DNA of 64,000 nt. It comes from Candidatus Methylomirabilota bacterium (GTDB lineage Bacteria > Methylomirabilota > Methylomirabilia > Rokubacteriales > CSP1-6). The notes under the pieces were generated by a model, which worked only from the letters and a program-made list of their open reading frames with translations, did no database searches and was not told where the DNA came from. The position numbers and the translations under genes are program-made. Where the stretch lies: NCBI GenBank assembly GCA_035605575.1, contig DASTCJ010000210.1, positions 78,750 through 142,749 of the forward strand, in the 5' to 3' direction. Below, piece by piece: positions 32,889 through 49,112 of this stretch (within the stretch, counting starts at the first letter, position 1; each line of letters begins with the position of its first letter).

Positions 32889-33467
32889 TCAGGCGCGGCT
32901 GCCAGGCTTGATCGCCTGACTGCCGCCCGCGCAAAGCGGACATGCTTCCGGGGGCCACGTCGTCGCGCTGACAGTGGCCAGCGCGCTGCGCTTGACGCCG
33001 AAGCTCACGGCGCCACCGCTGCGGTCGATCAGCGAGCCGACGCCGACCACGGCGCCACCGAGATCCTGCACGCATTGCATGACCTCGCGCGTGGAGCCGC
33101 CGGTGGTGATGACGTCCTCCACGACCAGACAGCGCTCGCCGGCCGCCAGGGAGAAGCCGCGGCGCAGCCGCATCACCCCGCCTTCGCGCTCCGTGAACAG
33201 CGCGCGCACGCCCAGCGCCCGCCCGACCTCGTGCGCGACCAGGATGCCGCCGATGGCGGGCGCGAGGACCGCGTGCACGCCGTCGGCGCGAAACGTCGCC
33301 GCCAGCCCGCGGCCGAGCGCCGCCGCGTGCTCGGGATACTGAAGGACGAGCGCCGACTGCAGATAAAGGTCGGAGTGCAGACCGGACGTCAGACGGAAGT
33401 GGCCGCGCATCAAAGCGCCCGTCTTCTCGTAGAGCGCCAGTGTCTGGCGTTCGTCCAGTGTCGTCAT
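32889..33467 (-). CDS. pyrE: Orotate phosphoribosyltransferase
   Basis: GHF.L.SG.HS..Y.Q.A, PA.GGI, PRPP motif LVVEDVITTGGS. Confidence 0.96.
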   Translation of the reverse strand: MTTLDERQTLALYEKTGALMRGHFRLTSGLHSDLYLQSALVLQYPEHAAALGRGLAATFRADGVHAVLAPAIGGILVAHEVGRALGVRALFTEREGGVMRLRRGFSLAAGERCLVVEDVITTGGSTREVMQCVQDLGGAVVGVGSLIDRSGGAVSFGVKRSALATVSATTWPPEACPLCAGGSQAIKPGSRA

Positions 33468-33640: not shown

Positions 33641-33656
33641 TGGCAACCGCGTTGCA
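33641..33656 (+). promoter_or_regulatory. Sigma-54 (-24/-12) promoter of the chemosensory/Roadblock operon
   Basis: TGGCAACCGCGTTGCA with exact GG-N10-GC spacing. SD AAGGAGG at 33681-33687, ATG 33697. Confidence 0.7.
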
Positions 33657-33696
33657 CTTCGCGGCCGGGCACGCTCACCCAAGGAGGCTCCGTGCG

Positions 33697-34059
33697 ATGG
33701 CGAAGGTGATGGTGGTCGACGATGCGGTTTCGGAGCTGAAGCTCATGGAATCGATCCTGAAGTCGGCCGGGCATGAGGTGGTGTCGCTGGTGGATGGCGA
33801 GGCGCTGGAGGACAAGCTCTCCAGCGAGCGCCCCGACGTGCTGCTGCTCGACATCGTCATGCCCAAGCGCAACGGTTACGAGATCCTCCGCGCGCTGCGC
33901 AAGGACGCCCGCACGAAGACGACCCCGGTCGTGCTCGTCAGCAGCAAGAACCAGGAGAGCGACCGCGCCTGGGGCAAGCGGCAGGGCGCCGACGAGTATC
34001 TCGGCAAGCCATTCACTTCGGACCAGCTCCTCACGATGGTGAAGCGCTTTGTCCGATGA
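33697..34059 (+). CDS. pilH: Single-domain response regulator, PilH-like
   Basis: VVDD, LLDIVMP..NG, SSKNQESDRAWGKRQGADEYL.KPF, which closely follows the PilH pattern. Confidence 0.85.
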   Translation: MAKVMVVDDAVSELKLMESILKSAGHEVVSLVDGEALEDKLSSERPDVLLLDIVMPKRNGYEILRALRKDARTKTTPVVLVSSKNQESDRAWGKRQGADEYLGKPFTSDQLLTMVKRFVR

Positions 34060-34573
34060 CGCGGTCACGTCCGCGCCGTCGGTGGACGCGGCGCCCGCCG
34101 GGGCCGCCACCGAGACCGCGGCCGCCCCGCGACACCGGGCGTGCATCATCACACTCGGCGGTCAGCCGTTCGCGGTGGATGTCCGGGAGGCGCGCGAGGT
34201 CGTCATCCTCGAGCCGTTGACGCCGGTGCCGGGGGCGCCGCCGCCGCTCATCGGAGTCGCCAACCTGCGCGGCAGCGTTCTCGGCGTCGCGGAGGCGCGC
34301 CCCCTCCTCGGCGTACCGGCACGACCGGTGACGACGGGCTCGCCTGCCCTGGTTATCGCGGCCGGCGAGCTCGTGGCCGCGATCCCCATCGACCGCGTGG
34401 TCGGTCTCGACTGGTTCGATGAGCCGCAGCCGCTCGATGCCAATGACCGCCGGCCCGGCGTCGCGTTCGCCGCCGGGCTCGTACCGCACGCGGGTGACTA
34501 TGCCACGCTACTCGATGCTGGCCGGCTCCTGGACGCGCTGCGCGCGCCATGGGCGTCGGTCGCGGAGGCCTGA
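34049..34573 (+). CDS. cheW: CheW/PilI-like coupling protein
   Basis: LGGQ.FAVDV...REV......TPVPGAP..L.GV.NLRG....V. Start uncertain (TTG). Confidence 0.88.
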   Translation: MSDDAVTSAPSVDAAPAGAATETAAAPRHRACIITLGGQPFAVDVREAREVVILEPLTPVPGAPPPLIGVANLRGSVLGVAEARPLLGVPARPVTTGSPALVIAAGELVAAIPIDRVVGLDWFDEPQPLDANDRRPGVAFAAGLVPHAGDYATLLDAGRLLDALRAPWASVAEA

Positions 34574-34576
34574 TCC

Positions 34577-35905
34577 ATGAACCGTCGCCACTTTCTCGGA
34601 ATGCTCGCCGGCTCGCTCGTCCCCGGCGCCCCGCGCGCGTGGGCGCAGTCCCGCCCGGTTGGTGGTCGTGTCGCACCGGCCGAGCCGACGCCCGTGCGCG
34701 TGGCGACGCCGGCGGTGGCTGCCGTCCCCGGCGTCACGGCCCACGACATCCGGGTCGGCATGAGCGCGGCCTTCCGCGGCACCGCCGCGGGTCTCGGCAC
34801 CGAGTTCTACCGCGGCGCCCAGGCGTACTACAACGACGTCAACGGCAAGGGCGGCGTGCACGGTCGCGGCATCAGCGTGATCGCGCTCGACGACGGCTAC
34901 GAGCCCATTCCGTGCGTGAAGAACACCATTCGTCTCCTCGAAAAGGAGCCGGTGTTCCTGCTGTCCAACTACGTCGGAACGCCGACCCTGACGCGCGCGC
35001 TGCCGGTCATCAAACGCTACGCGGAAACACAGGCCGTGCTCGTCGGCAACTTTACGGGAGCGCAGCCGCAGCGCGAAGCACCGTATGCGGAGCACGTCTT
35101 CAATATCCGCGCCTCGTACCGGCAGGAGATGATGGCGCTGGTCGACCGCTTCTGGCAGCTCGGAGCCCGCAAGTTCGGTGTGTATTACCAGATCGACGCC
35201 TACGGCCGCAGCGGCACCGACGGCGTCGCCCGCGGCCTCGCCCAGCGCGGCGTCCGCATCGTGGCCGAGGCGACCTATCCACGCGGCGCCAAGTTCACCG
35301 ACGACATGACGCCAGCCGTGAACGCGCTACGCCGCGGAGGCGTCGACGTCGTGCTCTGCACGGGCGCCTATCAGGGCTGTGGGGCCTTCGTGCGGACCGC
35401 CCGCGACGCCGGCTGGACGGTGCCGATCTCGAACCTGTCCTTCGTGGGCTCCGAGGCGATGCTGGCGCTGCTCGTCAAGCACGGCAAAGCCGTCGGTCGT
35501 GATTACACGCGGGCGCTCGTGAACTCGCAGGTCGTGCCGAGCTACGACGACGTCAGCCTGCCGGGCGTGGCCGAGTATCGGCTGCTCATGGACCGACACA
35601 ATCCGCCGCTGCCCGAGTCGCTGCGCGATCCGAGCTACGCGCTGCAGCGCTACAGCTTCATCAGCCTCGAGGGCTTCGTGAACGCGAAGGTCATCGTCGA
35701 GGCGCTCCAGCGCACCGGGCCACAGCCGACCCGCGTGGCCTTCCGGCAAGCCCTCGAGTCGTTGCGCAACTTCGATCTGGGTATCGGTTCGAGCTTGAGC
35801 TTCGGCCCAGAGCGGCACCAGGGACTCGACTCCGTGTACTTCACCCGCGTCGACGGCGAGCGATGGATTCCCATCGCCGACTGGGCCGCGGCAATTTCGG
35901 TGTAG
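34577..35905 (+). CDS. Orphan type-1 periplasmic binding protein (LivJ-like fold, Tat signal) within the chemosensory operon
   Basis: MNRRHFL, I.VGMSAAF.G....LG, N..GGV.GR.I..IALDD.Y.P, FN.RASY..E. No permease or ATPase adjacent. Confidence 0.88.
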   Translation: MNRRHFLGMLAGSLVPGAPRAWAQSRPVGGRVAPAEPTPVRVATPAVAAVPGVTAHDIRVGMSAAFRGTAAGLGTEFYRGAQAYYNDVNGKGGVHGRGISVIALDDGYEPIPCVKNTIRLLEKEPVFLLSNYVGTPTLTRALPVIKRYAETQAVLVGNFTGAQPQREAPYAEHVFNIRASYRQEMMALVDRFWQLGARKFGVYYQIDAYGRSGTDGVARGLAQRGVRIVAEATYPRGAKFTDDMTPAVNALRRGGVDVVLCTGAYQGCGAFVRTARDAGWTVPISNLSFVGSEAMLALLVKHGKAVGRDYTRALVNSQVVPSYDDVSLPGVAEYRLLMDRHNPPLPESLRDPSYALQRYSFISLEGFVNAKVIVEALQRTGPQPTRVAFRQALESLRNFDLGIGSSLSFGPERHQGLDSVYFTRVDGERWIPIADWAAAISV

Positions 35906-35916
35906 GGGGCCTTCAC

Positions 35917-37692
35917 ATGACATCTGTGCGCCTTCGCTTCGGACTGCTGCCCAAGATGGTCGTGTTCCTGGCCGTCGTTCTCATCCCGCTGGCCGCGATC
36001 ACCTGGTATGTCTCCGTGCAGCGGCTGCGCGCCGAGATGACGGACGAGTTCACGTCGAAAGGAACCGCCATCGCGAACAGCCTGGCCTCCTCCGGCGTCG
36101 ATTTGATCCTCACGCGCGACGCCTCGACCGTGCAGGCACTCATCGACCAGTTCGTGAGCATCAGCGGCGTGCATTACGTCATGGTGTACGACTCGCAGAA
36201 GAACCTCATTGCGCATACGTTCCACCCCGTGGTGCCGCCCGACCTCATCGACAAGAACCTCGTGCCCGGCGACGCCGCCAAGCAGGTGCGCGACGTCGTC
36301 TATCAGCATCCCGTCACCGGTGAGTCGCAGGAGATCATCGACGTCGGCGTGCCGATGCTGGGTGGCCAGCTCGGCACCGTCCGCGTCGGCATGAACAAGG
36401 CGATCATCCACGCCGCTGCCGCCCGGGCGGGCTGGTTCCTGTCCGAGGTGTTCGGCGGCATCGCGCTGCTGGCCGTCCTCGCCGGCGCCATGTTCGCGAC
36501 CCGCCTGACGCAACCGATCAGCGCCATCGTCCGTGTCGCCGAGCACGTCGGTCGCGGAGATCTGTCGCAGACGGTGACCGTCCAGTCGCGCGACGAGATC
36601 GGGCAGCTCGCCCGTACCTTCAACGACACGATCGTGCGGCTGCGGGCCCACGTCACCACCGAGGCCGAACGCGACGAGGAGCGCCGCCGCCGCGAGAGCC
36701 TGCAGGCGAACATCACGCAGTTCCTTGAGACAATGACGGAGATCGCCCAGGGCGATCTGCGCCAGCGCGGCCAGGTGACCCCGGACGTCCTCGGCAACGT
36801 CGTGGACTCCGTGAACGTCATGGTCGAGGAGATCGGCGCCCTCCTCGCCGATGTCCGCCACGCGGCCACGCGCGTGGCCACGAGCGCCGGCGAGATGATC
36901 GGGGCCACCGACCAGGTGGCGCGTGGCGCCGAGACGCAGGCGCGCGACGCCACCACCGTGAGCCGCGAGGTGGAGACGATGACGCGGTCGGTGCGGCAGA
37001 TCGCGTCGAACGCGGGCTCGGCGGCCACCGCCGCGCGCCAGACGCTGCAGGCGGCCACGCGCGGCGAGGACGCCGTGCGCAACAGCCTGTCCGGCATGCA
37101 GCGGATCCGCGGCGAAGTGCAGGTCATCTCGAAGAAGATCAAGAGCCTCGGCGACCGCTCGCTCGAGATCTCGAACATCGTCGACACCATCGAGGAGATC
37201 GCCTCGCACACGAACCTCCTGGCGCTGAACGCGGCCATCGAGGCGGCCGGGGCCGGCGAGTACGGCGCGCGCTTTGCCGTGGTCGCCGATGAGATCCGCA
37301 AGCTCGCCGAGCGCGCGGCCAGCGCCACCAAGGACATCGCCGGCCTCATCCGCTCGGTCCAGACGGAGACGCAGGAGGCGGTCGTGGCGATGGAGGAAGG
37401 TACGCGAGAGGTCGAGGCGGGCTACCAGGTGACCATCAACGCCGAGGAGAGCTTGAAGCAGATCGCCGGCATTTCGCGCACGTCGGCCGAGCTCGCCGAG
37501 GAGATCTCCGGCGTCACTCAGGAGCAGGTGCGCGGCGCCGAAGGCGTGGCCACCGCCATGCGGTCGATCGCCCAGGTCGCCGTACACACCGAGCAGGCGG
37601 TGCTGCAGACGCGCCGGACGGTCGACGATCTCGTGAAAGTCGCCGACGAGCTCACCCGAAGCCTGTCACGGTTCAAGCTGGCGACCGCCTAG
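35917..37692 (+). CDS. Methyl-accepting chemotaxis protein (PilJ-like, two HAMP domains)
   Basis: Two TMs around a periplasmic domain, HAMP1 and HAMP2, signalling tip TNLLALNAAIEAA.AGE.G..FAVVADEIRKLAE. Confidence 0.95.
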   Translation: MTSVRLRFGLLPKMVVFLAVVLIPLAAITWYVSVQRLRAEMTDEFTSKGTAIANSLASSGVDLILTRDASTVQALIDQFVSISGVHYVMVYDSQKNLIAHTFHPVVPPDLIDKNLVPGDAAKQVRDVVYQHPVTGESQEIIDVGVPMLGGQLGTVRVGMNKAIIHAAAARAGWFLSEVFGGIALLAVLAGAMFATRLTQPISAIVRVAEHVGRGDLSQTVTVQSRDEIGQLARTFNDTIVRLRAHVTTEAERDEERRRRESLQANITQFLETMTEIAQGDLRQRGQVTPDVLGNVVDSVNVMVEEIGALLADVRHAATRVATSAGEMIGATDQVARGAETQARDATTVSREVETMTRSVRQIASNAGSAATAARQTLQAATRGEDAVRNSLSGMQRIRGEVQVISKKIKSLGDRSLEISNIVDTIEEIASHTNLLALNAAIEAAGAGEYGARFAVVADEIRKLAERAASATKDIAGLIRSVQTETQEAVVAMEEGTREVEAGYQVTINAEESLKQIAGISRTSAELAEEISGVTQEQVRGAEGVATAMRSIAQVAVHTEQAVLQTRRTVDDLVKVADELTRSLSRFKLATA

Positions 37693-37698
37693 CTGGAC

Positions 37699-40473
37699 AT
37701 GATGGAGTCGGCCGACCGGGAGTTTCTGCGCTCCATCTTTCTGATGGAGGCGTGGGAGACCGTCGCGGCTCTCGAGGATGGCGCGGAGGCGGCCGCCCGC
37801 GGCGACCTGGAGACGCTGTATGTCGTCACCCACCGTCTCAAGGGCGCCGCGTCGCTCTACGGCTTTCCCGCGATCGCCGCGCTCGCCGGCGATCTCGAAG
37901 CCGTCCTCGAGACGACGCCGTTCCCCGCCGTCCGTCTCGCGTCGCTGCTCGCAGATCTCAAGCGCGCGCTGGACTCGCTGCCCGCCGGCACAACGGTGGC
38001 GACCGCCGTGCAACCGGCCGCCGCGCCGTCTGCGCACGAGAGCGGTGATGCCGCCGACTCGGTGCTCGACGACCCGATCCGCCGCGAGCTCGCGGAGTTC
38101 TTCGCCGCCAACGTCGACGTCGCAGCGTATTTCGTGCCGGAGGCGACCGAGCATCTGGAGGCGATCGCGACGGCGCTCCTCGCGCTCGAGCGCGGCGGCG
38201 GCGAGGACGAGCTGGCGCGGTTGTTCCGCTCGATGCACACGATCAAGGGCGCCGCCTACGTCGTCGGCTGCGTGCGCATCGGTGAGCTGGCCCATCGCGC
38301 CGAGGATTTGCTGGTCGCGGTGCGCGAAGGCGAGGCGACGCTGTCGCCGCCGGCTCTCGAGGCGTTGTTTGCCGCGGTGGACGTCCTGAAGCTCATGCTT
38401 GGCATCAATGCGAATCCGACGGCGTCCATGACGACGCTGGCCGCGGACGTCGGCGGCCGGCTGGAGGCACTGCTCGCATCGCCGCCGACCCCGCGTGCAA
38501 TGGACGCGGCACCGGTGCCGCCGGCACCGGCCATGGCGGATACGCGTGTCGAGGCGCTGGTACCGGCGCGCGCGGCGCGGCGCCGCGCGCCGGCCTCGAG
38601 CGCGACGCCGCGGCGCGCGCCACGACAGACGATTCGCGTCAACCTCGAGCGCCTCGATGCGCTCATGGACCTGATCGGCGAGCTCGTGACCGGGCGCAGT
38701 CGCGTCGACCGCCGCCTCGACGAGCTGGATCGCGTGTCGGCATCGCTGTTCGCCAGTCGCGCCCGCCTGGCCGAGGCCGTGAGCGAGTTCGAGCGCCGGC
38801 AGCTCGACCCGCGACGCGCCAGCGTCGCGAAGCCAGCGGCGCCGGTCAAGCCGACCGTGATCGGCCAAAGCGGTCTATCAGTGGCCGAGATGTTCGCGGA
38901 GCTGGAGTTCGATCGGTACGACGACGCCGGCATGTTCGCCCGCAGCATCGCCGAGATCGCCTCGGACATCGCGGAGCTCCAGGCCGAGCTCGTCGGGGTG
39001 AACCGCGCGCTGCGTGACGACGTGGCCCAGGTGCACCGGCTGACGGCCGCCATTCGCGGCGAGATCGGTCGCGCGCGGCTGGTGCCCGTCGGCAATCTGT
39101 TCACGCGGTTCGTCCGTCAGGGCAAGGAAGCAGCCCGCGCGGCCGGCAAGCAGGTGCAGATCGAGACGCTCGGCGAGACGGTCGAGCTGGATACGTCGGT
39201 CATCGAGCAGATCGTGGACCCGCTGCTGCACCTCGTGCAGAACGCCATCGGGCATGGCATCGAGTCGGTGGACGAGCGGCGCGCTCGCGGGAAGCCGCCG
39301 ATCGGCGCCGTCACGCTGTCGGCGACGCATCAGGGCGGCGCCGTCGTGCTGGAGGTCGCCGACGACGGGCGCGGAATCGATACCGACCTCGTACGGCGCC
39401 GCGCGGTGGCGCGCGGATTCGTCAGCGCGGACAACGCGGCCGCCCTCAGCGATCGCGAGGCCATCGACCTCATCTTCCTGCCCGGCTTCAGCACCGCGAC
39501 CGCCGTGACGACGGCATCGGGTCGTGGCGTGGGCATGGATGTCGTTCGCACCAACGTTCGGCGACTGAACGGCGAGGTCGACGTGGCGTCGACCCCGGGC
39601 GAGGGCACGCGCTTCACGCTTCGGCTGCCCCTCACCGTGCTCGTGTCGGAGGCGCTGCTCGTGAGCGCCGGCGGCGAAACGTTCGCCGCTCCCCTGAACT
39701 CCGTGCAGCTGGTGACGGCCGTTTCCCCCGAGCGCGTCCGACCCGGGGTGCAGGGCGAAACGCTGAGCCTCGCCGAGGACACCGTCGATCTGGTGAGCCT
39801 GGCGACCATCCTTGGATTGCCGGAACCGCCGCGCGGTGCCCGTCGCCCCGCGGTGGTGCTGCGGGCGGCCGGACGCTCGCTCGGCGTCGAAGTGGACCAG
39901 CTCCTGCACAAGCAGGACATCGTCATCAAGCCGCTGGGGGCGTTTCTCGAGGGCGCCGGTCCGTACGCCGGGGCCACGGTCACTGCCGACGGCCGCGTGG
40001 TGCTGCTCCTCGACGCGCTGGGTGTCGCCGAGCAGGCCGCGCGCCGCGCGCGCGCCGAGCGCGCCGCGCCCTTGGCCGTCGATGCGACCAGCCGCCCGGC
40101 CGCGCGCAAGCGGGTGCTCCTCGTGGACGACTCGATCAGCGTGCGGCGGTTCGTCGGCCAGATGCTCGAGAAAGCGGGCTTCGAGGTCACCACCGCCGCC
40201 GATGGTGCCGACGCGATCGCCCGTGTCGGCGAGGGCGGTCGTTTCGACGTCGTCGTGACCGACCTCGAGATGCCGCGTGTGAATGGGTACGAGCTCATCG
40301 ACGATCTGCGCCGGCGCCCGTCCACGCGGGGGCTGCCGGTGATCGTCCTGACGACTCGCGCCGGCGACAAGCACGTCGCGCTTGCCCGGGACCTCGGTGT
40401 CGACCACTACGTCACGAAGCCGGTCGAGGAACGGACGTTCGTGTCCCTTGTGAGCTCGGTGGTGCACGGGTGA
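37699..40473 (+). CDS. cheA: Hybrid CheA/ChpA-like kinase (Hpt-Hpt-dimerisation-HATPase-CheW-REC)
   Basis: Hpt1 THRLKGAA, Hpt2 MHTIKGAA, RVNLERLD.LM.L.GEL, HLVQNAIGHGIE, DDGRG, LPGFSTA...SGRGVGMDVV, CheW domain, C-terminal REC (VTDLEMP..NG, KP). Confidence 0.95.
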   Translation: MMESADREFLRSIFLMEAWETVAALEDGAEAAARGDLETLYVVTHRLKGAASLYGFPAIAALAGDLEAVLETTPFPAVRLASLLADLKRALDSLPAGTTVATAVQPAAAPSAHESGDAADSVLDDPIRRELAEFFAANVDVAAYFVPEATEHLEAIATALLALERGGGEDELARLFRSMHTIKGAAYVVGCVRIGELAHRAEDLLVAVREGEATLSPPALEALFAAVDVLKLMLGINANPTASMTTLAADVGGRLEALLASPPTPRAMDAAPVPPAPAMADTRVEALVPARAARRRAPASSATPRRAPRQTIRVNLERLDALMDLIGELVTGRSRVDRRLDELDRVSASLFASRARLAEAVSEFERRQLDPRRASVAKPAAPVKPTVIGQSGLSVAEMFAELEFDRYDDAGMFARSIAEIASDIAELQAELVGVNRALRDDVAQVHRLTAAIRGEIGRARLVPVGNLFTRFVRQGKEAARAAGKQVQIETLGETVELDTSVIEQIVDPLLHLVQNAIGHGIESVDERRARGKPPIGAVTLSATHQGGAVVLEVADDGRGIDTDLVRRRAVARGFVSADNAAALSDREAIDLIFLPGFSTATAVTTASGRGVGMDVVRTNVRRLNGEVDVASTPGEGTRFTLRLPLTVLVSEALLVSAGGETFAAPLNSVQLVTAVSPERVRPGVQGETLSLAEDTVDLVSLATILGLPEPPRGARRPAVVLRAAGRSLGVEVDQLLHKQDIVIKPLGAFLEGAGPYAGATVTADGRVVLLLDALGVAEQAARRARAERAAPLAVDATSRPAARKRVLLVDDSISVRRFVGQMLEKAGFEVTTAADGADAIARVGEGGRFDVVVTDLEMPRVNGYELIDDLRRRPSTRGLPVIVLTTRAGDKHVALARDLGVDHYVTKPVEERTFVSLVSSVVHG

Positions 40474-41507
40474 AAGTCTTGATCGTCGACCCCGACGCCG
40501 CGCGCGCGGCGACGGTGGCCGCGGCGTTCACCGCCAATGGCGCGCAGCCCACCGTCGCGCCGAGTGCCTCGTTCGCGCTCACGATGCTCGAGTGGAATCG
40601 GCAGGACGTGATCATCAGCCGCTCGCAGCTCGGCGACATGGACGCGCACGAGCTGTGCTCCATGGTGCGTGGCGACCCCTCGACGGTTGGCGTGAGCTTC
40701 GTCCTGATCGCCAGCCCCATTCCGACCTCGCAGATGTCGCTGACGGGGGTCGATCTCGTCATTCCGGATGGACTCGTCGGTCCGGCGATCGTCACGCGCG
40801 TGACGCATCTGATGCGACGCAAGGCGCCGAGCAGCGCTGCCCTGCCATCGGCGCTGCCCGCGGCGCCCGCCAGGCCGCCCGCGGTCACGCCGGTGGCGCC
40901 GCTGGTGACAGAGCCGCTGTCGCTGACGCCCACACCGCCGGCAACGTCGATCCCCGCGCCAACGGACCCGGTCGTCGCGGCGCCCGCGGTGCCGACGCTC
41001 GTCGCATTGCCGCCAGCCGTCTCGAGTGCGCCGCCCGCTCCGCCATCACCGGTCGCGCCCGCGGCCACGCCGCCGGTCGTGGCGCCGACGGCCGGCGTCA
41101 TGCTGAAGGGGGCGGCGCCGCCACCGCCTCCGCTCACCGAGCTGGAAGCGGTCGGGATGAACGGCGCCATGCGGACGTTTCAGGGCGCGCTCGGAGCGCT
41201 CGCGCTCGAAGATATCGCGCGGGCCATCGTCAAGGGCACCAAGACGGGGCGCCTGCTCGTCGTGCTCGGCACCGGCGGCGGCATGTTGGCGTTCGAGAGC
41301 GGTCGCATCGTGCACGCCGAGATCGGCAACACCACCGGCGAGACCGCGTTCCGGTCGCTGCTGGCCGCGTCGCATGGCGACGCCGGCGGCAAATTCTGCT
41401 TCATTCCATCGTCGCCACGCGATCTCGCCAACGTCCCGAAGACGATTACTCGCACGGTGGCCGAGCTTCTGGCCGGCGCCGCCGAGGCGACGAACGAGGA
41501 GAGATAA
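40470..41507 (+). CDS. Pseudo-receiver + Pro/Ala-rich linker + DUF4388 (PATAN-like) protein
   Basis: REC-like N-terminus (KVLIVDPD, DVIISRSQL). C-terminal FQG.L..L.L.DI.......KTG.L.V......G.L.F..G.I.HA......GE.AF..L....G.F.F. Confidence 0.75.
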   Translation: MKVLIVDPDAARAATVAAAFTANGAQPTVAPSASFALTMLEWNRQDVIISRSQLGDMDAHELCSMVRGDPSTVGVSFVLIASPIPTSQMSLTGVDLVIPDGLVGPAIVTRVTHLMRRKAPSSAALPSALPAAPARPPAVTPVAPLVTEPLSLTPTPPATSIPAPTDPVVAAPAVPTLVALPPAVSSAPPAPPSPVAPAATPPVVAPTAGVMLKGAAPPPPPLTELEAVGMNGAMRTFQGALGALALEDIARAIVKGTKTGRLLVVLGTGGGMLAFESGRIVHAEIGNTTGETAFRSLLAASHGDAGGKFCFIPSSPRDLANVPKTITRTVAELLAGAAEATNEER

Positions 41508-41510
41508 ACC

Positions 41511-42470
41511 ATGCCCAAGGTCCTGGTCATCGACGACAGCGTCAGCGTGCGGAAGGTCGTGGAGCGCGCGCTGGCGGGAAGGCAGGTCGACGTCACCTGC
41601 GCAGCGTCGGGCACCGACGCGCTGGAGTGCATGGAGCGCGATGCCCCGGACGTCATCATCTGCGACGTCGTCATGCCGGATCGTGACGGCTACGAGATCT
41701 GCGAGTTCGTGAAGAAGCATCCGCGACTGGGCGAGATTCCGGTGCTGCTGATGTCGGGCATCGTGAACGACGAGGTCAAGCAGCGGGCGGCGCGCGCCCG
41801 TTCCGAGGGAGTGCTGGCCAAGCCGTTCGCCGCCGAGGATCTGCTCAAGCGTCTGGAGACACTCGTCGGTCCGCTCGCGCCGCGCGTGGCCGAGGCGACG
41901 ACGCCGAACGCTCCGGCGCCGTCGCCCGCCGTCGACGCGATACCGACGTTGATGCCGGTCTCCACACTGTCGGTGCCGCCGATCGAGCCGCTCAAGTCGA
42001 CACCGCCGAAGCCGGCGCCGGCGGTACCGGCGGTCGCCGCCGACATCACGCCATCCGACTCTGCACGTCGCGTGGCCGAGCCCGTGGCCATCGCGCCGAC
42101 GTCGGCGGTGGCCGCACCGACCGACGCGGCGGCCGCCGTCCTCGCGCAGTTCACCGCGATGAACGGCGTGCAGTGGGCGGTGTTGTCGGATCGCGAGGGC
42201 TTCGTGGTCGAGGCGACCACCAACGCCGGCGTCGATGCCGATGTCGCGGCCGCGCTGAGCGCGTGTCTGGCCGAGTCGTCGGACGGGCTCGGCAAGGAGC
42301 TTGGCCGGGGTGGCCTGCACAGCATCATGCTCGAGTACGAGAAGGGCATGGTGATCGTCTACAGCGCCGGCCTCGGGCTGCTCGCCGTCGGTATGAGCGA
42401 GCCCGCCGTCCTCGGCAAGGTGCGCTACTTCGCCAAGAAGGCGCTGCCGGAGCTGATGCGGTCGGTGTGA
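41511..42470 (+). CDS. Response regulator + Pro/Ala-rich linker + Roadblock/LC7 domain
   Basis: Intact REC (IDDS, CDVVMP, KPF). C-terminal L......GV..AVL.DREGFVV, AAL.A.L......G.EL..G.L..I.LEY..G.V. Confidence 0.85.
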   Translation: MPKVLVIDDSVSVRKVVERALAGRQVDVTCAASGTDALECMERDAPDVIICDVVMPDRDGYEICEFVKKHPRLGEIPVLLMSGIVNDEVKQRAARARSEGVLAKPFAAEDLLKRLETLVGPLAPRVAEATTPNAPAPSPAVDAIPTLMPVSTLSVPPIEPLKSTPPKPAPAVPAVAADITPSDSARRVAEPVAIAPTSAVAAPTDAAAAVLAQFTAMNGVQWAVLSDREGFVVEATTNAGVDADVAAALSACLAESSDGLGKELGRGGLHSIMLEYEKGMVIVYSAGLGLLAVGMSEPAVLGKVRYFAKKALPELMRSV

Positions 42471-44356
42471 TGCCGCGCTATCGCAAGTCGGAAACCCGTT
42501 GGGTGCATGCGGCATGCGTCGCGGGCGGCTATCTCGTCTGCGTCGCGGGCCTGTTCACCCTGCAGGCCGGCGCCGGCTTGAACGTGCCGATCTCGGTGGC
42601 GGTGTCGGCGCCGCCCCTGGTGTATGCGGCGTTGGCGGTGCTGCTGCTGCGGGAGGCCGCCTTCGTCCGACGCCTCTCCTGGCTCGGCGGTGCCTGTCTC
42701 GTGCACGTCGTTCTCGCCGGGCTGGCGGCGACGGAGCTCGCCTGGGCCGGCGGCCTGTCGCTCGGCAACGCTCTCGCGCAGGTGTTCGTACTGTTCCCTC
42801 CCGCCCCGCTGCTCACGCTGATCGCGACGCCGCTGATCCTCGCGACATTCGGGATGACCGCGTCCAGACCGGCGCCCCGTTCTGACGCCGCCGCGCCGCG
42901 GTTGGCGACCGGCACGCGATCCAGGGGCGTCATTCCGTCTCCGCGCGCTGCCGGCGCCGCGGCCGAGAGCGCGCCGACTGCCGCGCGGACGATCGCGCCA
43001 CCGACCACCCGCGTGGCTCCTTCCGTCGTGCCGATCGCCTCGACGCCGTCGCCCACGACACCGCCGGCCGTCGTTGCGCCGGCACCGACGGCGCCGCGCA
43101 CGAATCCACCGTCGAAGCCCGGCCGAGCGGCCAACGACGGCATGGTGCGCGTGCCGTTCGACCGAATCGCCGCGCAGCTTCCCGCCGAGGCATTCGTGCT
43201 GCCGTTCGAGCGACTTGGGGAAAGCCTCCGCGAGCCGCATGTGATCCTCGTCCCGCGGCGCGTCGTGCTCTCGCAGATGCGCGACGGCGCGGTCGTCATC
43301 ACGTGGGCGCACATCGCATCGCAGTTTCCGGACCTCGCGCTTGGAATGACGGGCGACCAGTTCCGAAAGGAATATCCCGATCTCAAATTCGTGCTGCCCG
43401 TGGACGAGCTGGACGCTCAGCTCACGCCCGACGCCGTCGGCACCGCGCCGGTCTCGGCGCCGTTGCCGGTCGTGGCGCCGAAACCGTCCGCGGTCCCCGC
43501 GCGAGCAGACGTCACGCCGACCCCGGCCGCGACAGTGGAGGCGCCCGCGTCGTCGCGGGCGCCCGCGGCGGCCAGCACCACGCCGGCTGCACGCGCGTTG
43601 CCCCGATCCGCACCGAGTTCACCACCGCCGGCGGAGATGATGGATCGCGGGACGCTGGCGCGCATCGTCGCCTGCTTCAGCGGGGTCGGCACGTTCGAAG
43701 CTGCGGCCGAGCGGAACGCGGGCACCGTGGCCGTGGTACTGGTCGAGCCAGGGGTGTCGCGCGAAGCGGCCATCGCCTGCGCCGGCCGGCTCCTGCCGTT
43801 CGTCGCGGGCGTTTCCGCCGACGTCGTCACGCTGCGTACCGAACGAACGGTGCTGGTGCTTGCCGCCGCGTCAGCACCGATCGTCGTTGCCGTGCATCGG
43901 CCCAACGCCTCGGTCGCGCTACTGGCGCTTCGAGCGCTGAGCGCTGCCGCCATTGCGGGCACCATCCCGCCGGCCACTCCAGCGCCACCGCGTCGCGATC
44001 TCGAGCCGATGGGATCCGATGATCGTGTGGCGCGCGCGGCGCTGGCGCTGCGGACTTTTGGCGGCGCCGAGCCGACCGTCTTCGCCGACGCGAGCGGGCG
44101 TGTGTACGTCTTCAGCGGCGGCGGAGGCGATGACAAGGGCGTGGCGGCCCTGGCTCTCGGTGTCGTCGAGGCACTCGGCGATGGCGGTGAGCTCGGGGCT
44201 CCGGTCACCGTGGTGTTCCGGCGCGGCGCCGAGCAGACGGTGATCCGTCCGCTCTCCGGGCGCGCGGGCGTTCTCGCCGCCACGGGCGTGGTGACGCGGC
44301 CGGGCCGCGCCCTGCGGGATGCCGAGCGGGCGGCGGCGGTCCTCGAGACGCGCTGA
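42470..44356 (+). CDS. Hypothetical 628-aa membrane-anchored scaffold (N-terminal TM bundle, Pro-rich linkers, internal repeat domain, two probable degenerate Roadblock-like domains)
   Basis: ATG shares one base with the upstream stop, and its own stop shares one base with the downstream ATG. Domain calls come from visual secondary-structure patterning only. Confidence 0.7.
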   Translation: MPRYRKSETRWVHAACVAGGYLVCVAGLFTLQAGAGLNVPISVAVSAPPLVYAALAVLLLREAAFVRRLSWLGGACLVHVVLAGLAATELAWAGGLSLGNALAQVFVLFPPAPLLTLIATPLILATFGMTASRPAPRSDAAAPRLATGTRSRGVIPSPRAAGAAAESAPTAARTIAPPTTRVAPSVVPIASTPSPTTPPAVVAPAPTAPRTNPPSKPGRAANDGMVRVPFDRIAAQLPAEAFVLPFERLGESLREPHVILVPRRVVLSQMRDGAVVITWAHIASQFPDLALGMTGDQFRKEYPDLKFVLPVDELDAQLTPDAVGTAPVSAPLPVVAPKPSAVPARADVTPTPAATVEAPASSRAPAAASTTPAARALPRSAPSSPPPAEMMDRGTLARIVACFSGVGTFEAAAERNAGTVAVVLVEPGVSREAAIACAGRLLPFVAGVSADVVTLRTERTVLVLAAASAPIVVAVHRPNASVALLALRALSAAAIAGTIPPATPAPPRRDLEPMGSDDRVARAALALRTFGGAEPTVFADASGRVYVFSGGGGDDKGVAALALGVVEALGDGGELGAPVTVVFRRGAEQTVIRPLSGRAGVLAATGVVTRPGRALRDAERAAAVLETR

Positions 44357-44799
44357 TGAGCGCGCGCCTCGCCATCGGCGACGGAGACATGGGGAAGGTC
44401 CAAGCGCTCCTGGAGCGCCTGCTCGCGGACACCGGTTGCGCTGCCGTCGTGCTGAGCGGCCGTGACGGCGCATCGCTTGCCACTGCTGGCGCCGCCCGCG
44501 CGCTCGACGTCGTGTCGATGACGGCGCTGGCGGCCGGCGGCTTCAGCTCGACGGCGCCGCTGGCCCGGCTCCTCGGGGAGCGCGAGTTCTCCGTCCTCAT
44601 TCACGAAGGGGTGCGCCAGAGCCTGCACGTGAGCGCCGTCGACGACGCGACGATCCTGGTGGCGGTGTTCGACGAGCGGACGACGGTCGGAATGGTTCGC
44701 GTCTTCGCGCGCGAAGCAGCGGCTAAGCTCGCCACCATCCTCGACGAAACGCGAGCGGGATCGGGCCATGCGCGCCGATCGGGGCCGGGCGAGACGTGA
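44356..44799 (+). CDS. mglB: MglB-like Roadblock/LC7 protein
   Basis: Aligns by eye with Myxococcus MglB: L.RL..D.....V.L....G..L..AG....D..S...L.AG.......LA.L.GE.EF....HEG...SL....V....LV..FD.RT..G.VR. Confidence 0.8.
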   Translation: MSARLAIGDGDMGKVQALLERLLADTGCAAVVLSGRDGASLATAGAARALDVVSMTALAAGGFSSTAPLARLLGEREFSVLIHEGVRQSLHVSAVDDATILVAVFDERTTVGMVRVFAREAAAKLATILDETRAGSGHARRSGPGET

Positions 44800-45200
44800 C
44801 ACCGCGCCTCAAGCTCGCCATGGAGCACGACGGGCCGTCGCGCGGCCGGTTCGTGCGCGACGTGGTGCAGCAGCTCCTGAAGCTCCGCGCGGTGCGCGGC
44901 GCGCTCCTGGTCGCCCCGGATGGCTTCGTGATCGCCGCCGAAGTGCCGAACGCGGTGGCGATCGAGCCACTGGCTGCGATGGCGGCACGGCTGGGCCGCG
45001 ATCTCGAGTCGAGCGCGGGGAGGATGGGTCGCGCGTCCTTCTCGACGGCGATGTTCTCGGGGCCGGACGGGCCGATGTTCCTCGCGGCGGCACCGATCGG
45101 CTACGTGGTCGTGCTCGCCGAGCAGCGCGCCAACCACGAGGCCATCCGCAGCGCTACCGAGGAGGCCGTCGCGCTGCTCCAGAGCGCCTGGACTGATTAG
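44796..45200 (+). CDS. Roadblock/LC7 domain protein (MglC-like)
   Basis: L.....VRGALLV.PDG.VIA, LAAMAA.L...L......G...F.......G..F. GTGA overlap with mglB. Confidence 0.8.
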   Translation: MTPRLKLAMEHDGPSRGRFVRDVVQQLLKLRAVRGALLVAPDGFVIAAEVPNAVAIEPLAAMAARLGRDLESSAGRMGRASFSTAMFSGPDGPMFLAAAPIGYVVVLAEQRANHEAIRSATEEAVALLQSAWTD

Positions 45201-45913
45201 CGCCCGCTGAGCTCGGCGATGATTGCGGCGGCGGCCGCTCCGGGATCGGCGGCGGCGGTGATGGGCCGGCCGACGACGAGGTAATCAGCCCCGGCCTGGA
45301 CCGCCGTGCGCGGCGTGGCCACCCGCTTCTGATCATCCTCGCCGGTCGTGGACGCGGGTCGGATGCCCGGGGTCACGATGGTGAAGCGCCGACCCAGCGC
45401 GAGCCGGAGACGACGGATCTCCTGCGGAGATGCCACGCAGCCGTCGAGACCCGCGTCGCGCGCCGCCTCCGCCAGTCTCAGCACGTGACTCTCGACGCTC
45501 GCCGGCACGCCCATCTCCCGCTCGAGCGCGCGGCGGTCGAGGCTCGTGAGCACGGTAACGCCGAGACAGATCGGGCGGGCGACGCCGAACTCCCGCGCGG
45601 CCTGTCCGGCCGCCTCGGCGGCCGCGCGCATCATCTCGAGTCCTCCCGAAGCGTGGACGTTGAGCATGAACACACCGAGGCGCGACGCGCTGCGGACGGC
45701 ACCGGCCACGGTATTCGGGATGTCGTGAAACTTCAGATCGAGGAACACACGGAGGCCGCGCTTGTGCGCGAGATCCACCGCCGCCGGACCCGCGCTGGTG
45801 AAGAGCTGCGAGCCGATCTTCACGCCGGTCACCGCGCCCTCGAGACGGTCGAGCAGCCGTGCCGCGTCGTCGAGCGCTTCGACGTCGACGGCCACGAACA
45901 GCCGGTCACGCAT
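45197..45913 (-). CDS. pyrF: Orotidine 5-prime-phosphate decarboxylase
   Basis: [51 protein letters not shown]. Confidence 0.97.
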
Positions 45914-48900
45914 CGCTGTGGTACTCCTGCAGGCTCCGCACGCCCTGCTCGCCCTTCAGCAGCGCCTCGATGGCGCCGATGGCGGCCTGGGCGCCGTCGA
46001 CGGTGAGGTAGTAGGGGATGTTCTGGCCGACCGCCGTGCGGCGAATGGCCGCCGAATCCTTGCGCGCGCGCCCGTCTTCCGGCGTGTTGAAGACGAGCGC
46101 GATGTCGCCGCGCTTCATCAGGTCGACGACGTTCGGGCGGTGTCCCTCCAGCACCTTGTGCACGAGCTCCACCGTCATGCCCTGACGCTCGAGCACACGG
46201 GCCGTTCCGGCCGTGGCCACCAGCGTGAAGCCCATCTCCACGAGTCGCCGCGCCAGCGTGGTCAGCGCGCGCTTGTCGCGATTCTTGACGGAGACGAAGA
46301 CTTTCCCGGACGTGGGCAGCGCGGAGCTGGCCGCGATCTGCGACTTGAGATAGGCCTTGCGAAAATCGCGGTCGAGGCCCATGACCTCGCCGGTCGACTT
46401 CATCTCGGGACCGAGCACGATGTCGACGCCGGGGAACTTGATGAACGGGAATACCGACTCCTTCACCGCGATGTGCCGGAGCTCGCGCTCCTCGATGTGG
46501 GCGATCTCGCCCACCACCGCCTGACCGAGCATGGCGCGCGTGGCAATCTTGGCCAGCGGCACGCCGATGGCCTTCGAGACGAAGGGAACGGTGCGGGAGG
46601 CGCGGGGGTTCACCTCGAGCACGTAGATGGCCTCGTTGCGGATGGCGAACTGGACGTTGATCAGGCCGACCACGCCGAGCGCCTTCGCCAGCGCCTTCGT
46701 CTGCGCACGCAAGGCGCGGACCTGACCATCGTCGAGGCTGTAGGGCGGCAGCGCGCACGCGGCGTCGCCGGAGTGCACGCCGGCCTTCTCGATGTGCTCC
46801 ATGACGCCGCCGACCACGACGCCCTGTGTGTCGGCGACCGCATCGACGTCGATCTCGAGCGAGTCCTCGAGGAACTTGTCGATGAGGATTGGATGCTCGG
46901 GCGCCGCCTCCACCGCTTCGCCGACGAACTGCACCAGATCCTGGTCGTCGTACACGATGCGCATGGCCCGGCCGCCGAGGACGTACGAGGGCCGCACGAG
47001 CACCGGATACCCGAGCCGTCCTGCCACCTGGCGCGCCTCGGGCAGGGCGCGGACGGTGGCACCGGCGGCCTGGTTGAGTCCGAGCTCGTCGAGTAGCGCG
47101 CTGAAGCGCTGGCGATCCTCGGCGCGGTCGATGGCGTCCGGCGACGTGCCGAGGATCGGCACGCCGGCCTGCTGCAGGGAGACGGCGAGCTTGAGCGGTG
47201 TCTGTCCGCCGAACTGTACGATCACCCCGAGCGGCTTCTCCTTCTCGACCACGTTGAGCACGTCCTCGAACGTGAGAGGCTCGAAGTACAGTCGGTCCGA
47301 GGTGTCATAGTCGGTCGAAACCGTTTCGGGGTTGCAGTTGACCATGATCGCTTCGACGCCGTGGTCCTTCAACGCGAATGCCGCGTGCACGCAGCAGTAA
47401 TCGAACTCGATGCCCTGTCCGATGCGATTCGGCCCCGAGCCGAGGATGATGACCTTCCGGCGGCGGGTGGGCGGCGCCTCGTCCTCCTCCTCGTACGTCG
47501 AGTAGAGATACGGCGTGTGGGCGACGAACTCGGCCGCGCACGTGTCGACTGTCTTGAACGTGGCTCGAATGCCCTGCGACAGCCGGAGCGCGCGGATCTC
47601 GTTCTCGGTGCGGTCCGTGAGCCGGCCGATGAAGCGATCGGCGAACCCGAGCTGCTTGGCGCGCCGCAAGACGCTCGGGTCCGTCAGGGCGTCGCGCCGA
47701 ATCTGCGCCTCGTAGGCCACGATCTCGCGGATGTTCTCGATGAACCACGGGTCGATCTTCGTCACCCCGTGGACTTCCGCCGTGGACATTCCCGCGCGGA
47801 GCGCGTCGCCGAGCGCGAACAGCCGATCCGGATTCGGCACCCGTAACAGTCCCCGCAGCGTCTCCTCGTCGAGGTCGCGATCGAGCGTGAGGCCGAAGCG
47901 GTCCTGCTCGAGCGAGCGGACGGCCTTCTGCAGCGCCTCCTTGAACGTGCGCCCGATGGCCATCGCCTCGCCAACGGATTTCATCTGTGTAGTGAGCGTG
48001 CGATCGGCCTCGGGGAACTTCTCGAAGGCCCAGCGCGGGAACTTCACGACGCAGTAGTCGATGGCGGGCTCGAACGACGCCGGCGTCTCCCGCGTGATGT
48101 CGTTGCGCACCTCGTCGAGCCGATACCCGACGGCCAGCTTGGCGGCGATCTTCGCGATCGGAAACCCGGTGGCCTTCGAGGCGAGCGCGGAGGAGCGCGA
48201 TACGCGTGGATTCATCTCGATCACGACGAGGCGGCCGTCGGCAGGATTCACCGCGAACTGGATGTTCGATCCGCCCGTCTCGACTCCGATCTCGCGGATG
48301 ATGGCGACGGCGGCATCGCGCATGAGCTGATATTCCTTGTCGGTCAGCGTCTGCGCGGGCGCGACGGTGATCGAGTCACCCGTGTGCACGCCCATGGGGT
48401 CGAGGTTCTCGATCGAGCAGATGATGACGACATTGTCGGCGAGGTCGCGCATGACCTCGAGCTCGAATTCCTTCCACCCGATCACCGACTCTTCGATGAG
48501 CACGGTGCCGAGCGGGGACATCTGGACGCCCCAGCGCACCGCCTCTTCGAGCTCCTCGGGATTGTAGGCGATCGAGCCGCCGGTGCCGCCGAGCGTGAAC
48601 GACGGCCGGATGATCGCGGGATAGCCGGTGGTGCGGACGATGGTCTTCGCTTCCTCGAACGAGCGCGCCAGACCGGAGCGCGGCAGCGTGAGGCCGACGC
48701 GCTCGATGGCCTGCTTGAAGAGCTGGCGGTCCTCCGCCTTCCGGATGGCCGGGATCTTGGCGCCGATGAGCTCGACGCCGAAGCGATCGAGCGTGCCGTC
48801 CTCGGCGAGCGCCACCGCCAGGTTCAGCGCCGTCTGGCCGCCGAGCGTCGGCAAGAGCGCCTGCGGCCGCTCGCGCTCGATGATCTTCGCCACGAACTCC

Positions 48901-49112
48901 GGCGTGAGCGGCTCGACATACGTGCGCGTCGCCATCTCCGGATCGGTCATGATGGTGGCCGGGTTGCTGTTGACCAGCACGACCTCGTAGCCTTCCTCGC
49001 GGAGCGCCCGGCAGCCCTGTGTCCCCGAGTAGTCGAACTCGCAGGCCTGCCCGATCACGATCGGCCCGGAGCCGAGGACGAGGATCTTCTGGAGATCCGT
49101 CCGCTTCGGCAT
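45906..49112 (-). CDS. carB: Carbamoyl-phosphate synthase large subunit
   Basis: [26 protein letters not shown], duplicated ATP-grasp domains, C-terminal MGS domain. Confidence 0.98.

Follow-up and report, generated by a model that had tools for sequence, protein, structure and literature searches.

In the present study we describe a ten-gene operon located at positions 33697-45200 (plus strand) of a 64,000-nucleotide stretch of DNA, further called the window, which comes from a metagenome-assembled genome of Candidatus Methylomirabilota bacterium (order Rokubacteriales), an uncultured organism of soil. The operon joins a chemosensory pathway to a PATAN (DUF4388) protein and to a set of MglB/Roadblock proteins, and its genes are numbered here G1 to G10 in the order in which they lie: a chemosensory core (G1-G5), a pseudo-receiver-PATAN protein (G6), a receiver (REC)-Roadblock protein (G7), a membrane protein (G8), an MglB homologue (G9) and a stand-alone Roadblock protein (G10). 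What is new here is that the window form is a reduced, MglA-less derivative of a larger chemosensory-Roadblock operon. Comparison with related loci makes it highly probable that the gene of the small GTPase MglA, a paralogue of pilB and a gene for a tetratricopeptide repeat (TPR) protein were all lost from it, and the retained Roadblock proteins, normally helpers of the GTPase, seem to work without the usual MglA switch. Domain anatomy, conservation and the derived loss of mglA are, in our strong conviction, much more secure than the functional reading; whatever is said below beyond these three is inference.

A scan of a genome collection found 531 relatives, of which 80 loci were kept (L001-L080), nearly all titled Rokubacteria or Methylomirabilota. 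Searching with the ten window proteins by tblastn revealed that the order from G1 to G9 is conserved in most of these loci, wherever the contig is long enough. With one genome taken per species, the phylum is represented by 251 genomes, of which 97 have G7; among the 104 of high quality the number is 43, and most of the bearers belong to the window's own family. Dozens of Rokubacteria have thus kept the downstream genes together with the CheA core, and the lack of such co-conservation, which the initial annotation of this DNA had named as refuting its view, is not observed.

Most relatives, besides the genes known from the window, carry mglA, the pilB paralogue and the TPR gene between G8 and G10, so that the full form reads Che core, pseudo-receiver-PATAN protein, REC-Roadblock protein, G8, MglA, MglB, PilB, TPR protein and Roadblock protein. 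At L008 four genes lie between the G8 and G10 orthologues, coding for a 202-aa GTPase, the orthologue of G9, a PilB of 733 aa in which MshEN and T2SSE domains are present, and a TPR protein; the GTPase matches Thermus thermophilus MglA (3t12_A) with E = 3.8e-69. MglA is present in 72 of the 97 G7-bearing genomes, and in many genomes its gene lies on the same contig as the REC-Roadblock gene, 2-4 kb from it. Full-form genomes have a canonical PilB, 82-87% identical to that of the window genome, together with the operon copy (73%), and the L001 genome has the canonical PilB alone; judged by these identities, the operon PilB is an additional paralogue. A mere relocation of pilB out of the operon was considered and rejected, as relatives carry both the canonical and the operon copies.

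Two observations on the variability of the operon may be added. The TPR gene is always accompanied by the G10-type Roadblock gene (L008:16141-17591 and equivalents), and the two are placed after pilB on the same strand, or convergently downstream, or divergently upstream of G1. On visual inspection, the TPR protein has a C-terminal part that resembles a Roadblock domain. A minimal variant from another Rokubacterial family (L033:3562-13167) consists of REC, CheW, a dCache_1 receptor, CheA, a pseudo-receiver, REC-Roadblock and a G8-like membrane protein, after which unrelated genes follow. It has no gene for MglA, MglB, PilB, PATAN or a binding protein, and the parts kept even there are G7, G8 and the pseudo-receiver.

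The window belongs to a subclade of four genomes (G000, which is the window's own assembly analysed here, G001, G002 and G010) in which the GTPase is missing. In the window assembly (88.9% complete, 241 contigs) MglA was not found with either of two queries, Myxococcus xanthus MglA and the MglA of a relative. The Pfam Ras profile PF00071 gave a single match over the cut-off, which falls within an 849-aa frame and therefore is not a small GTPase. MglA is likewise absent from the three other genomes with the closest G7 copies (G001, G002 and G010), and G8, G9 and G10 are directly contiguous in the window, L001 and L003. When a tree was built from the CheA core, the window grouped with L001 and L002 (support 100) in a clade nested among MglA-bearing clades, and a single change is needed to explain the distribution of MglA on this tree; the absence of the GTPase is thus best taken as a derived, clade-wide loss. 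This alters the initial view of the locus in one important respect. The proposed single-operon circuit from chemosensing to Roadblock proteins is a real operon, in which a pathway with a multi-Hpt, REC-tailed CheA is joined to a PATAN protein and MglB/Roadblock proteins, but the arrangement seen in the window is not its basic design, and the missing GTPase, taken at first as a feature of the system, is a lineage-specific loss; most relatives have mglA in the operon.

The proteins left behind by this loss are under purifying selection. Compared with L001 (dS 0.5-0.8), dN/dS equals 0.17 for G9, 0.12 for G10, 0.24 for G7 and 0.32 for G8, and compared with L003 the values are 0.22-0.37; over both comparisons (dS 0.5-1.2) G9 and G10 stay within 0.12-0.25 and G8 within 0.32-0.37. 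G9 (44356-44799, plus strand) is, by its sequence, a clear and close homologue of MglB without an adjacent mglA: it matches M. xanthus MglB (6h5b_B) with E = 3.7e-21 and Pfam Robl_LC7 with 29.6 bits (cut-off 23), and scores 73.8 bits with the NCBIfam MglB model, under the equivalog cut-off of 200. G10 (44796-45200, plus strand), the last gene of the operon, codes for a divergent stand-alone Roadblock protein (Robl_LC7 30.1 bits, cut-off 23) whose best match in the PDB is an unnamed Roadblock protein (7yh1_D, E = 5e-4); no specific similarity to MglC was detected, as no chain of that name occurs among its ten PDB matches up to E = 10.

At two sites the retained proteins of the MglA-less loci differ from those of MglA-bearing relatives. 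The hydrophobic patch on helix alpha2 of MglB contacts MglA, and mutating it lowers MglA binding and GTPase-activating protein activity (PMC3199381). In three MglA-less loci (window, L001 and L003) the alpha2 motif of G9 reads FSSTAPLA, whereas the other 44 loci of the alignment have FSSTAA[LM]A or variants with Gly or Ser. The position changed from Ala to Pro aligns to G68 of M. xanthus and A72 of T. thermophilus, and the two patch residues (A68/A72 in T. thermophilus, A64/G68 in M. xanthus) are Ser and Pro here, as opposed to Ser and Ala/Gly in MglA-bearing relatives. In G8 a short motif, GIExFPxPFQP (approximately residues 325-345, alignment columns ~540-552), is present in all homologues from MglA-bearing loci and degenerate in the window, L001 and L003. 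MglA, the TPR protein or the operon-type PilB (PilB2) may dock at this motif.

G8 itself (42470-44356, plus strand) is a lineage-specific membrane protein of 628 aa and a putative scaffold. It belongs to no known family: no Pfam, NCBIfam or PDB sequence match was obtained, also when a profile of G8 was compared with PDB sequences, and a word-indexed search with its middle domain returned Rokubacterial 'hypothetical protein' matches alone. We describe it from an AlphaFold2 model built with a 24-sequence alignment (mean predicted local distance difference test score 77.6, about 90 within domains). According to the model, residues 1-125 form an N-terminal five-helix membrane region, residues 225-317 a middle domain, conserved and of the alpha/beta type, in which a strand-helix unit is repeated three times, and residues 393-496 and 512-626 two Roadblock-like domains of alpha-beta-beta-alpha-beta-beta-beta-alpha topology, all separated by disordered Pro/Ala linkers. 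In Foldseek searches with the two C-terminal domains the only high-probability matches (0.89-0.90) were MglB and LAMTOR/MP1-p14 chains, with template modelling (TM) scores of 0.58-0.65, normalised to the target, and non-significant E-values. The two domains resemble each other (hhalign P = 2e-4), and profile-profile comparison of them with G9, G10 and the C-terminal part of G7 gave nothing significant, so that their Roadblock nature is a prediction of the model. The search with the whole model was dominated by spurious low-probability HPPD matches and was discarded. From the initial estimate of at least three and possibly five Roadblock domains in the operon, three are significant in Pfam (G7, G9 and G10) and the further two, in G8, are predicted by the model only.

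G7 (41511-42470, plus strand) consists of a phosphorylatable receiver (Pfam 84 bits), a Pro/Ala linker and a Roadblock/LC7 domain (Robl_LC7 47 bits). The alignment shows no variation at receiver active-site residues D8, D9, D52, S82 and K104, in contrast to a variable linker. At least 951 homologues occur in the protein collection searched; few of them have an organism name, and those that do are Methylomirabilota. Like RomR of Myxococcus, G7 has a receiver followed by a Pro-rich linker, but a Roadblock domain stands where the RomR-C tail would be. Homology to RomR was considered and rejected: judged by PDB matches, which were generic CheY-like receivers alone, and by domain layout, G7 has no specific similarity to RomR, and 'RomR-like' is therefore an architectural analogy. 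G6 (40470-41507, plus strand) has the PATAN domain at the end (PF14332, 32.7 bits, cut-off 25), preceded by a Pro/Ala linker and a receiver that scores below the threshold (20 bits, cut-off 30). Among the approximately 60 orthologues not one has D at the phospho-acceptor position, the residues found there being R, Y, G, Q, L, H, K or S, and the N-terminal domain is therefore a conserved pseudo-receiver. With the receiver before PATAN, the domain order is the reverse of that in PatA/PixG, where PATAN comes first, and the arrangement of an N-terminal PATAN and a phosphorylatable receiver was not found in G6.

The chemosensory core starts with G1 (33697-34059, plus strand), a single-domain CheY-like receiver of 120 aa (Pfam Response_reg, 87 bits) which keeps the canonical DD/D/S/K residues, is 67-96% identical to its relatives and has a dN/dS of 0.04 with respect to L001. 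It is followed on the same strand by the CheW protein G2 (34049-34573; 73 bits; the TTG start is uncertain) and by G3 (34577-35905), a LivJ-like periplasmic binding protein (Peripla_BP_6, 150 bits) with a twin-arginine translocation (Tat) signal, whose N-terminus MNRRHFLG contains the twin-arginine motif RRHFL, read directly in the sequence. The G3 gene is kept at the same position in most related loci, and the protein is likely a co-sensor for the chemoreceptor G4 (35917-37692, plus strand, alternative start 35863), in which Pfam finds sCache_3_2 between two transmembrane segments, then HAMP and MCPsignal. G5 (37699-40473, plus strand) is the CheA kinase, composed of two Hpt domains, both retaining the histidine of HxxKG, H-kinase_dim, HATPase_c, CheW and a C-terminal REC; no P2 domain was found by Pfam, and NCBIfam profiles gave generic CheA models only. 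About 93% of multi-Hpt, REC-tailed CheAs belong to the type IV pilus (Tfp) or alternative cellular function (ACF) class (PMC10782961), and since this architecture is common to both, G5 may also be of the ACF class. Assembly-wide there is one CheA, one CheW and one methyl-accepting chemotaxis protein signalling domain, all inside the operon, which codes for the sole chemosensory pathway of this genome. Pfam bore out the domain calls of the initial annotation, and its statement that no CheR, CheB or small GTPase is encoded in the operon holds as well. The single CheR domain of the genome lies in a multidomain open reading frame on another contig (C7:60661-62814), unlinked to any che gene; this frame is long, with PAS-like and coiled-coil (EELQSTNEELETTNEELQ) regions.

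All ten genes are tightly packed on one strand, every junction being overlapping or at most 11 nt apart by the coordinates of the open reading frames, with overlaps of 11 nt (G1/G2), 4 nt (G5/G6), 1 nt (G7/G8), 1 nt (G8/G9) and 4 nt (G9/G10). A sigma-54 type -24/-12 promoter motif, TGGCAACCGCGTTGCA, is found by pattern match at 33641-33656 (plus strand), 40 nt ahead of the translation start region of G1, which consists of the ribosome-binding site AAGGAGG (33681-33687) and the ATG at 33697. Nothing else in the 64 kb of the window matches TGGCA-N6-TTGCW, for which 0.08 matches are expected; the strict motif has 35 occurrences genome-wide. TGG[CT]A-N6-TTGCA stands upstream of G1 in 44 of the 53 related loci, and RpoN is encoded in the genome (rpoN). 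Since the genes overlap or abut, the motif is conserved and rpoN is present, we regard the ten genes, on this sequence evidence, as one sigma-54-dependent transcription unit, in agreement with the original description of ten contiguous plus-strand genes behind a sigma-54 motif. The operon ends at 45200, where pyrF, identified by Pfam, converges from the minus strand at 45197, with carB beyond it. Both flanks hold pyrimidine-biosynthesis genes on the opposite strand, a pyrE-like open reading frame recognised by eye only (32889-33467) and pyrF with carB, both identified by Pfam (45197-49112); the operons of relatives have flanks unlike these.

The genome has seven matches to PF00437 (T2SSE), six of them over the cut-off. 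A complete set of type IVa pilus genes is present. Its canonical cluster lies outside the window on contig C140 (50665-65181, minus strand), approximately 47 kb upstream of the operon, and includes pilB, pilC, a PilS-like kinase, a PilR-like sigma-54 activator, pilA (GFTLIELLIVVAIIGILAAIA), pilD, minor pilins and a PilY1-like protein, as well as a TPR/glycosyltransferase-like membrane protein; its genes were read from translations, and only the T2SSE match was scored with a model. Two pilT-like genes are located on contig C7. The flagellar export gene for FlhA was not found in the assembly, and by its gene content the organism is non-flagellated and has type IVa pili as the only recognised motility organelle. 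The initial annotation had proposed a genome search for pilus genes and MglA, which thus gave a mixed answer: type IVa pilus genes are present and an MglA-family GTPase is absent. A weaker sigma-54-like motif, CGGCATGGTGCCTGCA, was noticed upstream of pilA (C140:58989-59170), where it begins at a distance of approximately 68 nt from the start of the gene; RpoN may thus be required for pilA as well as for the chemosensory operon.

Some loci of the scan lie at the border of the distribution described above. The Nitrospira loci L079 and L080 were rejected as instances of the system, as they have only CheA and a receiver protein in which Pfam finds no Roadblock domain. In a Deinococcota bin titled Meiothermus sp. 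(L072:3424-10792) the core order REC, CheW, receptor, Hpt-Hpt-CheA-REC, DUF4388 protein and REC-Roadblock is present, and the contig ends just after; this is either a wider distribution or mis-binning. Typical Rokubacterial operon copies occur also in bins L016, L027, L029, L041, L043, L062, L063 and L065, titled Verrucomicrobiia, Binatia, Dormiibacterota, Nitrosotalea, Acidoferrum, Limnocylindria, Nitrosocosmicus and Deferrimicrobiaceae, and these contigs are probably mis-binned.

Regarding function, we incline, by a narrow preponderance, to the reading that the operon controls pili through a Roadblock network, that is, that it is a chemosensory circuit whose phosphorylatable REC-Roadblock output may act on a membrane-anchored Roadblock scaffold. 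Binding of a ligand to the Tat-exported protein G3, to the sCache receptor or to both would modulate CheA. The kinase would then phosphorylate three receivers, namely G1 (a sink or an output), the one at its own C-terminus and that of G7. Phosphorylation of G7 might change the pairing partner of its Roadblock domain within a membrane-anchored stack of Roadblock dimers, whose members would be the tandem Roadblock-like domains of G8, MglB (G9) and G10. In full-form relatives the site at which MglB acts on MglA would be determined by the stack, and with it the place where pili are switched on by MglA, the TPR effector and PilB2; the full-form operon would be a hard-wired counterpart of the route Frz -> RomR/MglC/MglB -> MglA -> SgmX -> PilB in Myxococcus. 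In the genome studied here the GTPase layer is gone, and the canonical pilus motor is presumably either a direct target of the Roadblock and PATAN proteins, by analogy with cyanobacterial PATAN regulators acting on PilB1, or simply positioned by them. In its strictest version, in which phosphorylation of G7 by CheA re-sorts the Roadblock dimers on the G8 scaffold and this alone positions or gates the pilus motor, such a GTPase-free switch is a tentative idea that we put forward with some doubt.

Several points weigh against control of pili by a Roadblock network. The contacts between the proteins, the phosphotransfer and the effect on pili are inferred from sequence and models; the Roadblock identity of the G8 domains is a predicted one, for which Foldseek E-values are non-significant; and no pilus gene is found inside this genome's operon, the nearest, pilB, lying approximately 47 kb upstream. 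The architecture of G5 is also found in ACF systems, which control functions other than motility. Finally, Pro at the MglA-contact site of G9 and the lost FPxPFQP motif of G8 could mean decay rather than rewiring.

Among the rival explanations, the one that survives best, though we consider it unlikely, is a non-pilus output of the ACF type, such as exopolysaccharide or biofilm formation, cell division or positioning, or development, with the Roadblock proteins serving as generic scaffolds of NTPase regulators. It agrees with the class ambiguity of the multi-Hpt, REC-tailed kinase, with a window operon devoid of pilus genes, with the minimal variant L033, which has neither MglA, MglB nor PilB, and with the non-motility roles of MglA/Roadblock modules, for example in actinobacterial conservons (PMC4316618). 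The pilB paralogue within the operon of most relatives speaks for pili, however, as do the lack of detected flagella, which leaves pili as the sole recognised motility organelle, and the PATAN regulators, which are known partners of pilus motors (bioRxiv 10.1101/2021.06.11.447907). Decay, in turn, would make G8, G9 and G10 functionless leftovers of a polarity module after the loss of mglA, with the Che core alone in use. Some of what one would see in such a case is seen: mglA is gone together with the pilB paralogue and the TPR gene, MglB has the Ala-to-Pro change, and the G8 motif is degenerate. Yet three genomes keep the reading frames intact, the start and stop codons still overlap, and the dN/dS values given above are far from neutral, which makes this improbable. 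That MglA escaped detection, because it lies in the unassembled 11% or has diverged very strongly, so that a normal MglA/MglB switch operates, is very improbable: the assembly is incomplete and fragmented and the phylum has MglA elsewhere, unlinked to the operon, yet neither MglA query matched, PF00071 revealed no small Ras-like frame, all four subclade genomes (of which G010 is 98% complete) are without MglA, and three genomes have no gap left between G8 and G9 at the syntenic position.

The operon, with pilus control through its Roadblock proteins as the favoured reading, resembles several known systems and equals none of them. As in M. xanthus (Frz/RomR-RomX/MglC/MglB/MglA/SgmX), a chemosensory kinase stands upstream of receiver-domain and Roadblock proteins, G9 is a true MglB homologue, and relatives add MglA, a TPR protein and PilB, in parallel to MglA, SgmX and PilB of Myxococcus (PMC7519303). 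G7, built like RomR at its N-terminal side, ends in an MglC/MglB-type domain. The Myxococcus parts are encoded at separate loci and not in one operon; mglA is not located near the genes of its partners in Myxococcus and Bdellovibrio (PMC4316618). No orthologue of RomR-C, RomX or MglC was detected here, and this genome has no MglA. Frz, a member of the ACF class (PMC3441718), has CheB, CheR, a cytoplasmic receptor and the dual-receiver protein FrzZ, whereas the operon has none of these and its receptor is transmembrane, with a binding protein.

Cyanobacterial Tax/Pix phototaxis (PixG/PatA, PixH, PixI, PixJ, PixL) shares with the operon the single REC, CheW, receptor, Hpt-CheA-REC kinase and PATAN protein, the lack of CheB/CheR in the cluster and the pilus motor as the output, here a presumed one. 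It differs in that the PATAN protein of the operon has the reversed domain order and a dead receiver, that the input is a chemoreceptor and not a photoreceptor, and that Roadblock proteins and a membrane scaffold are added; PATAN genes are occasionally found near mglA/mglB (PMC4316618). Pil-Chp of Pseudomonas aeruginosa is similar by architecture, having a multi-Hpt CheA with C-terminal receiver, a single-domain receiver, CheW, one dedicated receptor and type IVa pili, but it has the adaptation enzymes PilK/ChpB and two CheY-like outputs, and no PATAN or Roadblock partners. The eukaryotic Ragulator (LAMTOR)-Rag complex embodies the same concept, a small GTPase being supported there by stacked dimers of the Roadblock fold that are anchored to a membrane, and the G8 models match LAMTOR chains with TM scores of 0.63-0.65; this is an analogy of predicted folds with no sequence relationship, and in this genome the GTPase is absent. 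In full-text literature searches on MglA in Rokubacteria, on PATAN combined with Roadblock and MglA, and on chemosensory genes in the neighbourhood of MglB, no account of this operon was found, in line with the initial impression that no such description was known.

In Myxococcus the route from Frz to the MglA/MglB polarity switch is still debated, and its components are scattered around the genome. The full form in Rokubacteria, where receptor, kinase, REC-Roadblock protein, scaffold, MglA/MglB, TPR protein and PilB are encoded in one operon, offers concrete candidates for each link. The subclade of the window is a natural deletion experiment on this route: MglA, the dedicated PilB and the TPR gene were dropped together, which argues that the three act as a unit, and MglB with the other Roadblock proteins was kept under selection, which argues for an MglA-independent role. 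Of orphan MglBs 328 have been counted, with none experimentally characterised as of 2014 (PMC4316618); G9 is such an orphan for which, by operon membership, an upstream kinase and partners are defined. If the GTPase-free switch proved true, it would mean that an MglB-family protein can function independently of MglA, that the link from chemosensing to polarity can be direct, without RomR/RomX-like intermediates, and that G8 would be a bacterial counterpart of Ragulator.

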